This document shows, one piece after another, positions 32,588 to 37,218 of a stretch of DNA of 64,000 nt; the stretch's first letter is position 1, and each line of letters opens with the position of its first letter. The position numbers and the translations under genes are program-made. This stretch comes from Escherichia phage pEC-M719-6WT.2: sequence record OQ845958.1, one strand, 5' to 3'. The notes under the pieces are model-generated. The model was not told the origin of the DNA. It made no database searches and saw only the letters and a list, made by a program, of their open reading frames with translations.

Positions 32588-33148
32588 ATGAACATCATCA
32601 AATCTGATACCGAACCCAACCAGTTAAAATTTAGTGAAATGGAGATAGCTTCATTATTTGAATGCCGTACATCAAAGGTTGATAAGACCTTGCATTCAAA
32701 TGTCAACTCAATCATCAAGTCAAGGTTGTCTATACCCGATACAGTCTTGTGGCGCGGGGTAACCCAGCAAGAGATTGATTTATTAGATGAAGCAAAAGAA
32801 TCAATGCAACCTTTTGAATTTGGACGGGTAACCTCCTTTACAGAAGACTATGGTATTGCCAGGGATTTTGCTGCAATGGAATATGTGACAAGGACTATCG
32901 TCAGATTGAATCAGACCAAAGCTTTTTGTTACCATGATGCGATGCGCAAAATCGCACTTGATGTTCCACTTGAATTCTTCAATACAGCTTCTGGTTCCGC
33001 CCAGGCAGCTACATTAAGGCGTGAAGAATACATGGACATGATTGATTCTGAGCTTGAATGGTTTGTTCCAGTTGACCAGAAATTCGTGGTAGTTGATGCT
33101 GGATTTATTGATGATTATTATGTTCTTGACTGTGTACAAGAGCAATAA
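32588..33148 (+). CDS. mono-ADP-ribosyltransferase, ModA/ModB family
   Basis: R-S-E ART signature: LWRG, VTSFTED, ELEW; tandem with next ORF. Confidence 0.6.
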   Translation: MNIIKSDTEPNQLKFSEMEIASLFECRTSKVDKTLHSNVNSIIKSRLSIPDTVLWRGVTQQEIDLLDEAKESMQPFEFGRVTSFTEDYGIARDFAAMEYVTRTIVRLNQTKAFCYHDAMRKIALDVPLEFFNTASGSAQAATLRREEYMDMIDSELEWFVPVDQKFVVVDAGFIDDYYVLDCVQEQ

Positions 33149-33192
33149 GACACGTTAAGATGTTCCTATCAACTACTGATGAGGATAATAAA

Positions 33193-33807
33193 ATGCTGTA
33201 CACTGATGACGTTTTGAATGGAATTATTAACACTGCCGCTTCTAGTGAGTCTTTTCGTAACCAATGTCAAGCGGAGATTGATGCTCTTTATACAGATAAT
33301 GAGCAATCAGTACTCTGGCAGTGTATGGAAAATAAACCTGACCTGATTCAAGAAGACTTGTCCAGGATTATCCGCAACAATCTGAATACTGCACCGCCGG
33401 CAGCATTGTTCCGTGGTATATCAAAGAAAACCATGGAATACCTGGAAGATTTAAGATATGTTGGTGCAACAATTGAATTCAATCGTGTAATGAGTTTTTC
33501 CAGGGACTGGCAGGTTGCAAGAAATTTCGCATCATACAGTTTCTATGGAACAAGGAACATTTTCTGTATAAACAATGCACCATATGCGTATAACTATCAG
33601 GAAGCAATCTTCAAAATGATTTGTGGTGCTCCTCCTGAAGAGTTCAATGGTGCATATCCAGAAGCAACCAGGAAGTCAAACTTGCACCTGGTTAATGATG
33701 AAGATGAGTTTATGTTTCCCGCTGGGACTACGCTCCGCGTAGACTTGATTGAAACACACCCATTGAATAACCTGTATACTGTTTGGCATTTAACTGTTTT
33801 GAACTAA
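33193..33807 (+). CDS. mono-ADP-ribosyltransferase, ModA/ModB family
   Basis: ALFRG, MSFSRD, EDEFMFP motifs; paralogue of preceding ORF. Confidence 0.6.
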   Translation: MLYTDDVLNGIINTAASSESFRNQCQAEIDALYTDNEQSVLWQCMENKPDLIQEDLSRIIRNNLNTAPPAALFRGISKKTMEYLEDLRYVGATIEFNRVMSFSRDWQVARNFASYSFYGTRNIFCINNAPYAYNYQEAIFKMICGAPPEEFNGAYPEATRKSNLHLVNDEDEFMFPAGTTLRVDLIETHPLNNLYTVWHLTVLN

Positions 33808-33859: not shown

Positions 33860-33912
33860 AAAAGTAGTGTACATAAAAGATGAATAGTATATAATGATTC
33901 CGTACTGAGTTA
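33860..33912 (+). promoter_or_regulatory. early promoter cassette (A-tract, -35 TGTACA, -10 TATAAT, conserved downstream GATTCCGTACTGAGTTA)
   Basis: One of three copies of the AAAAAGTAGTGTACA...ATAATGATTCC(A/G)TACTGAGTTA cassette. Confidence 0.5.
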
Positions 33913-33940: not shown

Positions 33941-34684
33941 ATGAATATGTCAAAAGAAGAGTTTGAATTAAAAGTTTACAAACGTCGCGAGCATACCAAA
34001 ACGTCTGCAAAACGTCGTAACAAGGATTTCAATCTGTCTAGTAAGTATATTGCCAATCTTTTGAAACAAGAATTCTGTGCGTATTCTGGTGAACGTTTTG
34101 ATGAAAATTCAACTCAAGATAAAGTTTCCTTTGAACGCTTTAACAATGATATAGGTTATATTGAAGGCAATGTTATCCCTGTCAAAACTAAGTACAACGG
34201 TTTACGTGCTGATTTATCTCTTGATGAACTTAAACGTGCACAGACTCGTTTGGCGGTGCGTATTAATGGCGGTTCTAAGATGCCCAATAGTTTTAAAGTA
34301 ACTCCCGCTGACTATTATAAAATTCGCAAAATTGTTAAAAATATTAAAGATACCGAACGTGGAATCAAGAAGCGTCAAAAACATTTAAAAGAGCTTTATA
34401 AAAGTGGCGCTAAAGATACCACCCCTTCTGTGATTGCAGTCAAGGCTCGTATCCATGGACAAATGGCTTCCATCGGAACTAGTCAACGTGGGCTGAAAAT
34501 GGTTATGGGTGGTCCTGACTGGCGTCTGAAAATGAAATCATCTGACGCTGAAACGCGTTACGATATGTATGATAAAATTATTCAAGGTCTGGAGCGTTTA
34601 GATAAGTTGTCATTCATTGACCGCCTTAAACTGAAACGTGGTCTGCCTTTGAACGCGTCAATTTTTAAACTGATTAGAGGTTAA
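33941..34684 (+). CDS. Srd-like protein (by position); carries HNH-like SFERFNNDIGYIEGNV motif
   Basis: 247-aa basic ORF between mod genes and dda where T4 has srd. Confidence 0.4.
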   Translation: MNMSKEEFELKVYKRREHTKTSAKRRNKDFNLSSKYIANLLKQEFCAYSGERFDENSTQDKVSFERFNNDIGYIEGNVIPVKTKYNGLRADLSLDELKRAQTRLAVRINGGSKMPNSFKVTPADYYKIRKIVKNIKDTERGIKKRQKHLKELYKSGAKDTTPSVIAVKARIHGQMASIGTSQRGLKMVMGGPDWRLKMKSSDAETRYDMYDKIIQGLERLDKLSFIDRLKLKRGLPLNASIFKLIRG

Positions 34685-34685
34685 T

Positions 34686-34985
34686 GTGATGTACTACGCA
34701 TATGTGCTGGTCCACAAAGATAAAGATGGTTTTGAACACCCATTGGAGTATGATGGAAAGGTTACCTTATACACCACAAAAGTGGGCGCAGAATATGAAC
34801 TTGCCAACTATTCATATACTACAAGCCGCTATTTACGCATGGGACGTATTGAAACAGTATGCACACCTAGAAAATGGTGGTTTGATAAGTGGGAAACAAA
34901 AACTGTTTTTCCTACTGAAGAACACGCACGAGAATTGAAATTAATTTTAGATACTTTATATGTTAAGCGAGTAAAATTGGCATGA
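34686..34985 (+). CDS. hypothetical protein (dda.1 position)
   Basis: 99-aa ORF overlapping dda start. Confidence 0.45.
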   Translation: MMYYAYVLVHKDKDGFEHPLEYDGKVTLYTTKVGAEYELANYSYTTSRYLRMGRIETVCTPRKWWFDKWETKTVFPTEEHARELKLILDTLYVKRVKLA

Positions 34986-36310
34986 TTAAATTTGAAGACT
35001 TGAACACAGGACAAAAAGAAGCTTTTGATTATATTACTGAAGCTATTCAGCGACGTTCAGGGGAATGTATCACTCTGAATGGTCCAGCTGGCACAGGTAA
35101 GACCACTCTGACAAAATTTGTCATTGACCACTTAGTGCGTAATGGAGTTATGGGAATTGTGCTTGCTGCACCAACTCACCAGGCGAAAAAAGTTTTATCT
35201 AAATTGTCTGGTCAAACAGCGAATACAATCCATAGTATCTTGAAGATTAACCCAACGACATATGAAGACCAAAACGTTTTTGAACAGCGCGAAATGCCTG
35301 ACATGTCAAAATGCAATGTTCTGGTTTGTGATGAAGCAAGTATGTATGACGGGTCTCTGTTTAAGATTATTCTTAACTCTGTTCCTGAATGGTGCACTAT
35401 TCTTGGAATTGGTGATATGCACCAGCTGCAGCCGGTTGACCCAGGAAGCACACAGCAAAAGATAAGCCCGTTCTTTACGCATCCTAAGTTCAAACAGATT
35501 CATCTGACTGAGGTCATGCGAAGCAATGCTCCTATCATTGAAGTGGCGACAGAAATTCGCAATGGCGGCTGGTTTCGCGACTGTATGTATGAAGGCCATG
35601 GTGTGCAAGGTTTCACCTCACAAACCGCTTTAAAGGATTTCATGGTAAACTATTTCAGTATTGTAAAAGATGCTGATATGTTGATGGAAAACAGGATGTA
35701 TGCATACACGAATAAATCAGTTGAAAAACTGAACAATATTATTCGTCGCAAGCTCTATGAAACGGATAAAGCATTTTTACCGTATGAAGTCCTGGTTATG
35801 CAAGAGCCGCACATGAAAGAGTTGGAATTTGAAGGTAAGAAATTCAGCGAAACCATTTTTAATAATGGTCAGTTGGTTCGCATCAAGGATTGCAAATACA
35901 CTTCCACCATTCTCCGTTGTAAAGGCGAATCGCACCAGTTAGTGATTAATTACTGGGACCTGGAAGTTGAGTCAATTGATGAAGATGAAGAATATCAGGT
36001 TGACCGCATCAAAGTTTTACCAGAAGACCAGCAACCAAAATTCCAGGCATATCTGGCGAAAGTTGCTGACACATACAAACAGATGAAAGCCGCTGGTAAA
36101 CGTCCAGAGTGGAAAGACTTCTGGAAAGCGCGCAGGACCTTCTTGAAAGTCCGTGCTCTTCCGGTCAGTACAATCCACAAGGCCCAAGGCGTTTCAGTGG
36201 ACAAAGCATTCATCTATACTCCATGCATCCATATGGCCGAAGCTTCATTAGCGAGCCAGTTGGCTTATGTAGGAATCACACGAGCGAGGTACGACGCATA
36301 TTATGTATAA
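34982..36310 (+). CDS. dda: DNA helicase Dda (SF1B)
   Basis: 442 aa; Walker A GPAGTGKTT, DEASM; strong match to remembered T4 Dda. Confidence 0.95.
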   Translation: MIKFEDLNTGQKEAFDYITEAIQRRSGECITLNGPAGTGKTTLTKFVIDHLVRNGVMGIVLAAPTHQAKKVLSKLSGQTANTIHSILKINPTTYEDQNVFEQREMPDMSKCNVLVCDEASMYDGSLFKIILNSVPEWCTILGIGDMHQLQPVDPGSTQQKISPFFTHPKFKQIHLTEVMRSNAPIIEVATEIRNGGWFRDCMYEGHGVQGFTSQTALKDFMVNYFSIVKDADMLMENRMYAYTNKSVEKLNNIIRRKLYETDKAFLPYEVLVMQEPHMKELEFEGKKFSETIFNNGQLVRIKDCKYTSTILRCKGESHQLVINYWDLEVESIDEDEEYQVDRIKVLPEDQQPKFQAYLAKVADTYKQMKAAGKRPEWKDFWKARRTFLKVRALPVSTIHKAQGVSVDKAFIYTPCIHMAEASLASQLAYVGITRARYDAYYV

Positions 36311-36542
36311 AGTACATAAAGAAGATTTAGATAATCTTATCTATGGTATTCAGGACGCGGTTGAATTTTTCGAAGATAATCCGACTATCGTCGTGCAGGG
36401 TAATTACGTTTTGCTGGAACTGAATCTTATTCGGAAACGTATGGCCGCGATTGAATATTTTAACAATGAAGAGCCAGGGATTTTTATCTCCGACTATGTT
36501 GCTGGTGAAATTCAAAAATTAAAAGAGATGTGCGATGATTGA
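36303..36542 (+). CDS. hypothetical protein
   Basis: 79-aa ORF coupled to dexA. Confidence 0.45.
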   Translation: MYKVHKEDLDNLIYGIQDAVEFFEDNPTIVVQGNYVLLELNLIRKRMAAIEYFNNEEPGIFISDYVAGEIQKLKEMCDD

Positions 36543-37218
36543 TGCTATTATTGACTTTGAAACTCTGGGAAACGGCTCGAAGGGAGCCGTTATTGACCTG
36601 GCTCTGATTACATTCGAATCTGACCCTGCTATTGTGGAATCATTCGAAACCCTGGTTAATCGCGGCAAACGTATCAAGTTTAGCCTTGAATACCAAAAAG
36701 GTAAGCGTCTGTTCGATACAACAACCATGGGTTGGTGGAAAAAGCAATCAGCAGAAGCCCGTGTTAACTTGGCTCCTTCTGCGCAAGATGTTGATACTCT
36801 GACCGGTATCCAACAGGCAATTGATTATCTGAATGGTAATGGAATTAACAAATACGAAAGCCTTATGTGGTGTCGTGGAATGTCTTTTGACTTCCCGTTG
36901 TTTGTTGACCTTATCCGTGACCTACAGCGCAATGAGGGTATTCCCGAGCGTGAATTGAATACCTATGGCCTGGAGCCAGTTGTATTCTGGAACCAGCGAG
37001 ATATCAGGACAGCAATCGAAGCCCTATCACTCGTCCGTAAGATGTGTGAAACTCCATTACCAAAGGGGACTTTAGATGGATTTGTGGCGCATGATTCGGT
37101 GCATGACTGCGCGAAAGATATTTTGATGCTTAAGTATGCCCAGCGCTATGCTCTTGGTTTGGATGAAGTTCCTTCCGAAGAAGATGCAGACCCGTTATCT
37201 TTACCGAAAAAACGATAA
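36535..37218 (+). CDS. dexA: exonuclease A (DnaQ-like 3'-5' exonuclease)
   Basis: 227 aa, N-terminal DFET exonuclease motif, same length as T4 DexA. Confidence 0.8.
   Translation: MIDAIIDFETLGNGSKGAVIDLALITFESDPAIVESFETLVNRGKRIKFSLEYQKGKRLFDTTTMGWWKKQSAEARVNLAPSAQDVDTLTGIQQAIDYLNGNGINKYESLMWCRGMSFDFPLFVDLIRDLQRNEGIPERELNTYGLEPVVFWNQRDIRTAIEALSLVRKMCETPLPKGTLDGFVAHDSVHDCAKDILMLKYAQRYALGLDEVPSEEDADPLSLPKKR

Follow-up and report, generated by a model that had tools for sequence, protein, structure and literature searches.

The srd gene of Escherichia phage pEC-M719-6WT.2 is an orthologue of T4 srd whose product has a predicted PacI-type beta-beta-alpha-metal domain

What is an HNH-like motif doing in a gene that lies where T4 has srd? 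In the 64,000 nucleotides of Escherichia phage pEC-M719-6WT.2 that we analysed (sequence record OQ845958.1; the window hereafter means this whole stretch), the question is raised by an open reading frame (ORF) for a protein of 247 amino acids (aa). An earlier note on this DNA had placed the ORF at the srd position and had pointed out its motif, both of which are confirmed by the sequence and the gene order; it went on to suggest a mobile or degenerate endonuclease rather than an Srd orthologue. This choice of one or the other is not upheld: the ORF encodes a full-length Srd orthologue, and Srd of the T2/T4 type carries the same motif (CAYSGEPF...SLERFDNNVGYIKGNVIAV, also given as CAYSGEPF...SLERFDNNVGYIKGNVIAVKKKYN). 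Taken as a whole, we regard it as probable that the gene is a vertically inherited srd orthologue, that its product joins a PacI-type N-terminal domain (N-domain) to a helical C-terminal domain (C-domain), and that it shares, by orthology, the role of T4 Srd at RNase E.

The window comes from a Gaprivervirus. The DNA of the srd region is 99.1% identical to that of Escherichia phage EAWsc9, another member of this genus, and Srd is 100% identical to the EAWsc9 protein annotated "Srd anti-sigma factor". PHROG 1400 'Srd anti-sigma factor' matches the window Srd with an expectation value (E) of 1.9e-89 (residues 6-247 against positions 3-249 of the 251 of the profile), and the identity to T2 Srd is 48.5% over 239 aa. 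A tblastn search with the window Srd matched 1,162 phage records, 1,081 of them with a coverage of 80% or more of the protein; the identity decreases stepwise, from 100% in Gaprivervirus to about 48% in Tequatrovirus (T2, T4-like), about 38% in Klebsiella and Citrobacter phages and about 28% in Acinetobacter phages. The homology between T4/T2 Srd and the window Srd is full-length (246 and 247 aa, respectively) and extends to the neighbourhood, the N-terminal motif and the C-terminal tail. Relative to T4/T2 Srd, the window Srd is a diverged Gaprivervirus allele, with a poorly conserved middle part of the C-domain.

The gene order agrees with this assignment. Two modA/modB-like ADP-ribosyltransferase genes lie upstream of the window srd, and dda.1, dda and dexA follow downstream, which is the srd position of T2/T4. 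In T2 the order is modB, modA, srd, dda.1, dda, dexA, and the same order is found in the window, EAWsc9, Escherichia phage vB_EcoM_RZ (RZ) and Serratia phage WSPA; srd synteny is kept also in an Acinetobacter T4-like phage. Identities to T2 amount to 35% for dda.1, 35-39% for modA/B, 48.5% for Srd, 60% for dda and 65% for dexA. As the divergence of Srd from T2 falls inside the 35-65% range of its neighbours, srd has diverged in step with its surroundings. On sequence grounds the ORF is thus orthologous to T4 srd, the Gaprivervirus version of an early host-takeover gene that is inherited vertically and is not mobile, and as such a known and ordinary core early gene of T4-like phages rather than a mobile element.

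Close relatives of the phage point in the same direction. There are 32 records with a coverage of 80% or more of the 4.6-kb modA-dexA region; the alignment of each of them runs through the srd locus, and those inspected that are annotated all list a gene there. Insertion polymorphism in relatives, which the earlier note had proposed to look for, was therefore not seen in these 32 close relatives; what we found is allele replacement only. The case in point is RZ (L006), where a mosaic boundary coincides with srd (window 33941-34620 versus RZ 1577-2323). From about 34534 to 37218 the two phages are 94.7% identical, compared with 42-75% for the srd coding DNA, 50.6% for the Srd protein and about 79% for modA/modB. 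Identity recovers near or just upstream of the codons of the C-terminal tail, reaching 0.75, 0.87 and 0.98 in the 60-nucleotide bins at 34558, 34618 and 34678, respectively, and an apparent recombination junction with RZ is located near or just upstream of this conserved tail. Judging from the alignment, the srd difference between RZ and the window is an allele replacement within one genus, not a case of presence versus absence.

We then come to the motif itself. That it resembles the beta-beta-alpha-Me finger of HNH nucleases, as the earlier note had it, is borne out by PHROG matches, by structural comparison with Foldseek, by a superfamily profile and by an hhalign comparison with the restriction enzyme PacI. 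As a single sequence, the window Srd matches phrog_3322 "endonuclease" (E 2.4e-15), phrog_4592 (8.6e-14), phrog_3118 "HNH endonuclease" (8.5e-13) and phrog_1035 "endonuclease VII" (2.1e-4). An AlphaFold2 model of full-length Srd reached a predicted local distance difference test score (pLDDT) of 85.6, and in a Foldseek search with this model PacI came out on top. Since the matches below PacI were coiled-coil noise, the N-domain was modelled alone (aa 1-112), giving a pLDDT of 90.2 and a beta-beta-alpha topology: two helices, beta1 (62-66), the omega loop (67-77), beta2 (78-82) and a helix (83-89). The top match of this model in the PDB was again PacI (3ldy_A; probability 0.99, TMq 0.58, E 0.055), and the five best matches are all HNH nucleases, among them PacI, the Gme HNH nicking enzyme (4h9d) and the HNH domain of NmeCas9. 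Residues ~10-95 of Srd are thus predicted to form a beta-beta-alpha-metal (His-Me finger/HNH) domain, and this domain is common to all Srd proteins.

Sequence profiles lead to the same enzyme. With a superfamily profile (A5; 44 sequences, Srd included), PacI 3ldy_A was the best of 177,635 PDB sequences (E 0.002, PacI residues 30-119), and hhalign of the superfamily against PacI gave a probability of 88.7% (E 2.5e-6, 81 columns). A profile of 275 domain copies without any Srd-type sequence gave 76 bits for the window Srd and 22 bits for PacI, both in the same register. In the reverse direction, the PacI fragment matches phrog_1035 (2.1e-6), phrog_3322 (5.9e-4) and phrog_3118 (1.6e-3); these three families are matched by both Srd and PacI. 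PacI (PDB 3LDY/3M7K; His-Me finger group 20 of Jablonska et al. 2017) ranks first among the fold matches as well as among the PDB sequence matches, and is the closest solved relative of the Srd N-domain by fold and by sequence profile. It takes the intermediate superfamily to detect the pairwise similarity of PacI and Srd. When PDB sequences were searched with the Srd protein alone no match was obtained, and the full-length profile gave only coiled-coil noise from the C-domain. In an hhalign comparison with a Gme-type canonical HNH alignment the register was consistent (P 0.003), at a probability of only 4-11%. A direct relationship to T4 endonuclease VII was dropped, the hhalign comparison of the N-domain profile with this enzyme (0.1% probability) being uninformative.

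The alignment places Srd and PacI in one register: Q-x2-C-x-Y-x-G, followed by [D/E]-R, G-Y, N and N-x2-[K/R]. The position of E65-R66 was obtained from three independent alignments, and in the Gme HNH alignment R66 is paired with the His of D-H. Canonical HNH nucleases (Pfam PF01844/PF14279; Gme HNH 4H9D; the Cas9 HNH domain) share the beta-beta-alpha-metal fold with Srd, which aligns to their register C-x-Y-C-G-E, D-H, G-N-V, C-N-x2-K but is devoid of their catalytic His and zinc knuckle. PacI and Srd are alike in having an Arg at the canonical catalytic His position and a Tyr in the omega loop; they differ in that Srd has a Glu (E65) in place of Asp92. Furthermore, the DNA restriction enzyme PacI is a homodimer (142 aa), whereas in Srd one such domain is fused to a helical domain of ~130 aa. 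PacI has Cys4 zinc sites (aligned ligands C63, C66, C109 and C112), of which Srd retains C46 alone.

PacI is an exception among His-Me finger nucleases in lacking the catalytic His, the role of which is taken over by a Tyr of the omega loop (PMC5714182). In PacI a single metal ion is coordinated by the side chains of one Asp and one Asn, and a Tyr is placed as the general base (PMC4081073). We infer that Y100 is the tyrosine that replaces the catalytic His in PacI, because it is the sole Tyr in the aligned loop segment. The active site proposed for Srd would, as in PacI, be composed of the acid before Arg, the Gly-Tyr of the omega loop and the Asn at the start of the helix. In fact, the acid preceding the catalytic position, the structural Asn and the Asn of the first helix turn that are typical of His-Me fingers are all present (E65, N77 and N86). 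From the PacI alignment it follows that Srd retains every element of a PacI-type active site, minus three of the four aligned zinc ligands.

These residues are the ones that do not change. Invariant in 31 aligned Srd proteins are A23, R26, K28, Q43, C46, A47, Y48, S49, E51, F53, E65, R66, G72, Y73, G76, N77, V78, V81, K82, K84, Y85, N86, R89 and L97; all invariant columns of this alignment fall within the N-terminal 97 residues, and G50 is conserved in more than 90% of 27-31 Srd proteins. E65, R66, G72, Y73, N77, N86 and R89 remain invariant down to 27% identity, and the catalytic set is also intact in two more distant phage Srd proteins. Among 339 domain copies of the superfamily the catalytic positions of Srd are 94-99% conserved: D/E65 in 335, G72 in 334, Y73 in 335, N77 in 337, N86 in 333 and K/R89 in 329; C46 is present in 335. 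Position 66 is Arg in 317 copies and Lys in 15; the catalytic His expected at the C-terminal end of beta1 is absent, with R66 in its place in Srd and no His among the residues tallied in the 339 copies. Degeneration, the other half of the earlier suggestion, finds no support here, as no part of the protein is better conserved than the motif region and its odd substitutions are shared throughout: the change from His to Arg and the losses of Cys are, as read from these alignments, the invariant signature of a PacI-type clade with a loop Tyr in place of His.

Two observations on individual positions may be added. The lone Cys of Srd (aa 46, nucleotides 34076-34078), counterpart of the first PacI zinc ligand, is kept in 335 of the 339 copies although the other three positions are not Cys. 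In a subgroup with the motif TASLDRID..GY..GNVQWVHK, a His occupies Srd position 82 (47 of the 339 copies).

Conservation drops sharply behind the N-domain. Residues 10-95 share 43-63% identity with the window Srd where the C-terminal 150 residues share 14-45%, making the N-domain with its motif the most conserved part of the Srd family. Distant T4-like phages keep the N-domain and have a different or longer C-terminal part (Serratia phage WSPA, 218 aa; an Acinetobacter phage, 317 aa). In the full-length AlphaFold model the C-domain consists of helices 122-154, 162-198, 202-221, 225-232 and 241-246, and sequence and fold searches revealed no significant relative of it beyond coiled-coil noise. 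An exception to its variability is the tail (also written GLPLNASIFKLIRG), with a mean column conservation of 0.67 for aa 226-247; as a guess, this tail might dock onto a partner protein.

The N-domain is by no means confined to Srd. Searching 1.84 billion representative proteins with its profile returned 60,170 clusters (50% identity) at E<=1e-3 and 19,622 at E<=1e-10. These are mostly phage and metagenome proteins with the motif S-L-D-R-I-D-x3-G-Y-x2-G-N-V...N-x2-K (PHROGs 3322, 3118 and 4592), and they contain the same domain as Srd, as is evident from the 76 bits obtained with the non-Srd profile and from the same invariant residues. BFVD holds 83 viral structural matches to the Srd-type domain at E<=1e-3. 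Members differ from Srd in that most of the best-scoring ones have two tandem copies and no Srd C-domain, and in that E-R and C-A-Y-S-G of Srd correspond to D-R and C-P-[IV]-L-G in most of them. Two tandem copies are found in most of the best 150 matches, an architecture that resembles the PacI homodimer with its one motif per subunit (PMC3384342) and suggests that the tandem-copy members are pseudo-dimeric DNA-cutting enzymes. The superfamily members scanned gave no Pfam or NCBIfam family, and cluster look-ups of ten of them yielded no informative name. The 2017 classification of His-Me fingers does not contain Srd and lists only ~88 members for the PacI group (PMC5714182); what is exposed here is a large PacI-like superfamily of phages and metagenomes without a curated Pfam or NCBIfam model.

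Examples of tandem-copy relatives are P0060, P0061, P0064, P0068, P0073 and P0084. P0073 (852 aa) matches in four stretches and has a Srd-like CAYSG...SLER motif. A distant single-domain member, P0056 (metagenomic phage contigs L008/L009, 2266-2718), overlaps the 3' end of a class II ribonucleotide reductase gene, a placement typical of free-standing homing endonucleases.

Turning to function, T4 Srd is reported to bind RNase E in its N-terminal, catalytic half and to accelerate the decay of host mRNAs (Qi et al. 2015, as described in PMC7430671, PMC4980113, PMC13232886 and PMC9409239), and srd expressed alone impairs growth of Escherichia coli (PMC6070864). On the basis of its orthology to T4 Srd, the window Srd is assigned a putative RNase E-binding role in the decay of host mRNA. 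Only very few proteins, Srd among them, have been reported to activate RNase E via its catalytic half. RapZ and CsrD, like Srd, are reported to stimulate RNase E cleavage in this way (PMC7430671); they are host proteins specific to particular small RNAs and have no relation to Srd in sequence or fold, in contrast to the phage protein with its nuclease-type domain. What is new here is the assignment of the third of Srd under the strongest constraint to a PacI-type nuclease domain whose catalytic set is intact, which makes the mechanism of RNase E activation testable by point mutants. No paper that brings Srd and HNH together was found in the literature collection searched. A hint was nevertheless already in the databases, as pipelines label a few Srd homologues "HNH endonuclease", including the Srd orthologues in two Klebsiella phage records.

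How would such a domain act at RNase E? The N-domain may be the nucleic-acid-handling part, which would keep RNA in place at RNase E or else cut in a metal-dependent manner, and the helical C-domain may dock Srd, dimerise it or both. That the N-domain has real nuclease activity is given slightly less than an even chance. In a stronger version, Srd would be an active PacI-type, Tyr- and metal-dependent endonuclease which, tethered to RNase E, makes the first cuts in host transcripts, so that the "stimulation" of RNase E would be partly catalytic, via 5'-phosphate ends. His-Me finger nucleases leave such ends, and RNase E prefers 5'-monophosphorylated substrates. The idea is attractive because the products of the one enzyme would be the preferred substrates of the other; even so, we consider it rather unlikely. 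If the nuclease is active, the tens of thousands of unannotated clusters with D-R...G-Y...N...N would represent a major uncharted class of His-less HNH phage nucleases.

It is also quite conceivable, though we would not bet on it, that the N-domain binds only. In its fuller form this alternative sees in the N-domain a catalytically dead, exapted HNH fold, comparable to SMAD MH1 or to the nuclease-like domain of ENPP, that provides only a surface for binding protein or RNA and activates RNase E allosterically, like RapZ; we give it a serious but less than even chance. It would account for the loss of zinc-binding Cys in Srd and for the lack of any report of nuclease activity of Srd in the literature examined; furthermore, passages in the literature place the action of Srd on RNase E, in association with its N-terminal half, and His-Me fingers that bind without catalysis are documented (PMC5714182). 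The documented dead examples, SMAD MH1 and ENPP, are however without both the His and an equivalent Tyr (PMC5714182), while in Srd the PacI set of acid, Arg, Gly-Tyr, Asn and Asn is found without exception in 31 orthologues and in the two more distant phage proteins. An entirely different role is implied by the database label, according to which Srd is an anti-sigma factor, a decoy of sigma70 or sigmaS that competes for the RNA polymerase core. The label dates back to a similarity proposed in the 1990s. It survives in GenBank and PHROG names and in a review table that lists Srd as 'decoy of sigma70/sigma38' (PMC3594737), and the growth defect caused by srd expression (PMC6070864) could be read in its favour. 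Yet no Sigma70 family of Pfam matches the window Srd at E<=10, none is found among the 25 families shown for 31 Srd proteins, the predicted fold is an HNH domain plus a helical domain, and later papers, in the passages dealing with Srd, attribute the phenotype to RNase E. The widespread label thus has no profile support, and a sigma decoy seems very unlikely to us.

Still less probable, to the point of being negligible, is the explanation closest to the earlier suggestion, namely that a free-standing homing endonuclease of the Mob/Seg kind, or its decaying remnant, sits in the srd slot. The thought is natural enough: free-standing endonucleases of the HNH type are common in T4-like genomes (PMC2988022), distant superfamily members such as P0056 adjoin conserved phage genes, some pipelines use the name 'HNH endonuclease' for Srd homologues, and the srd allele has been swapped between otherwise near-identical Gapriverviruses. 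Against it stands a full-length gene at the same locus in ~1,080 phage records of many genera, replaced by another allele but never missing in the 32 close relatives. Its divergence tracks that of its neighbours and its motif region is under the strongest constraint; it has no match to Pfam HNH_3 or other HNH models of Pfam, and it possesses a conserved, Srd-specific C-domain. A mobile element was accordingly rejected on the grounds of synteny (T2, Serratia and Acinetobacter T4-like phages), number of carrier phages and conservation pattern, and a pseudogene or degenerating gene was discarded in view of the motif region, where the constraint on Srd is strongest. The earlier note had named, as the outcome that would speak against its proposal, a clear full-length alignment to T4 Srd with no HNH fold predicted; the full-length alignment was indeed obtained, but so was the predicted fold.

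Several points weigh against the combination that we prefer, i.e. a vertically inherited Srd with a PacI-type N-domain and a role at RNase E. The window Srd has no match to any HNH family of Pfam, not even at E<=10, nor does one appear among the 25 Pfam families shown for 31 Srd proteins (E<=1; the curated models considered were Pfam HNH, HNH_2-5 and Endonuclease_7), and NCBIfam scans of Srd proteins gave no HNH model either. Indeed, Pfam and NCBIfam scans of the window Srd, 31 orthologues and distant relatives produced no meaningful family of any kind. The Foldseek E-values are weak (0.055-0.32), with none of 58 PDB matches reaching 0.001. A profile built from Srd only reaches PacI at just 12 bits (E 0.9); because of this weak score, and because the profile without Srd scores both proteins in one register, we regard the link between Srd and PacI as transitive but consistent. 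With three of the four aligned zinc ligands gone (S49, K82 and Y85), the active site of Srd may not be held in shape as it is in PacI, and it is from the alignment that E65, Y73 and N86 are grouped into a putative active site. On the functional side, an orthology with 48% identity is no proof that the activity is the same in this phage. Nuclease activity of Srd is not reported in the literature examined, where the effect is attributed to RNase E, and an effect of this sort fits a non-catalytic adaptor equally well.

Table 1. Features of the srd locus in the window and residues of Srd aligned with PacI
Feature	Position	Strand	Remarks
Promoter-like site of the sigma-70 type, upstream of srd	33868..33895	+	TGTACA, 16-nucleotide spacer, TATAAT; 10/12 consensus matches; putative
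srd orthologue	33941..34684	+	ATG start; 247 aa; coordinates include the stop codon; confirmed in the sequence
N-terminal PacI-type beta-beta-alpha-metal (His-Me finger) domain, predicted	33968..34225	+	aa ~10-95
CAYSGERF	34076..34099	+	aa 46-53; counterpart of PacI C63-G-Y-C66-G; C46 kept, second zinc Cys is Ser49
SFERFNNDIGYIEGNVIPV	34127..34183	+	aa 63-81; second part of the motif in the window Srd
E65-R66	34133..34138	+	end of beta1; PacI D92-R93; D-H of canonical HNH
G72-Y73	34154..34159	+	omega loop; PacI G99-Y100
N77	34169..34171	+	structural Asn of the HNH motif; PacI N104
N86-G-L-R89	34196..34207	+	start of core helix; PacI N113...K116 (metal-binding Asn and basic residue)
Q43, C46, Y48, S49, G50			PacI Q60, C63, Y65, C66, G67; second zinc Cys replaced by Ser
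K82, Y85			PacI C109, C112; zinc ligands lost
C-terminal all-helical domain	34301..34681	+	aa ~121-247; Srd-specific; variable except for the tail
Conserved C-terminal tail KLKRGLPLNASIFKLIRG	34628..34681	+	aa 230-247; G234 invariant; L235 and P236 >90% conserved

The remaining observations concern the surroundings of srd, its relatives and its names (Table 1 for coordinates). Unlike the srd coding DNA, the region with the promoter-like site upstream of srd is ~95% identical in phage RZ. The two upstream genes (window 32588-33148 and 33160-33807) are adjacent paralogues for NAD-protein ADP-ribosyltransferases of the modA/modB type; each of their products can be aligned with T2 ModA as well as with T2 ModB, though with no more than 29-39% identity. 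Hundreds of records carry names such as 'Srd anti-sigma factor', 'decoy of host sigma70 or sigmaS' or even 'anti-termination'. Finally, the 261-kb Straboviridae genome of Klebsiella phage vB_Kpn_AM_K6 (L005) contains, at 2549-2767, only a Srd-like fragment of 72 aa, which adjoins a tRNA-Thr gene and begins at MTLERWNNDLGY, within the beta-beta-alpha motif; it looks like a pseudogene remnant.

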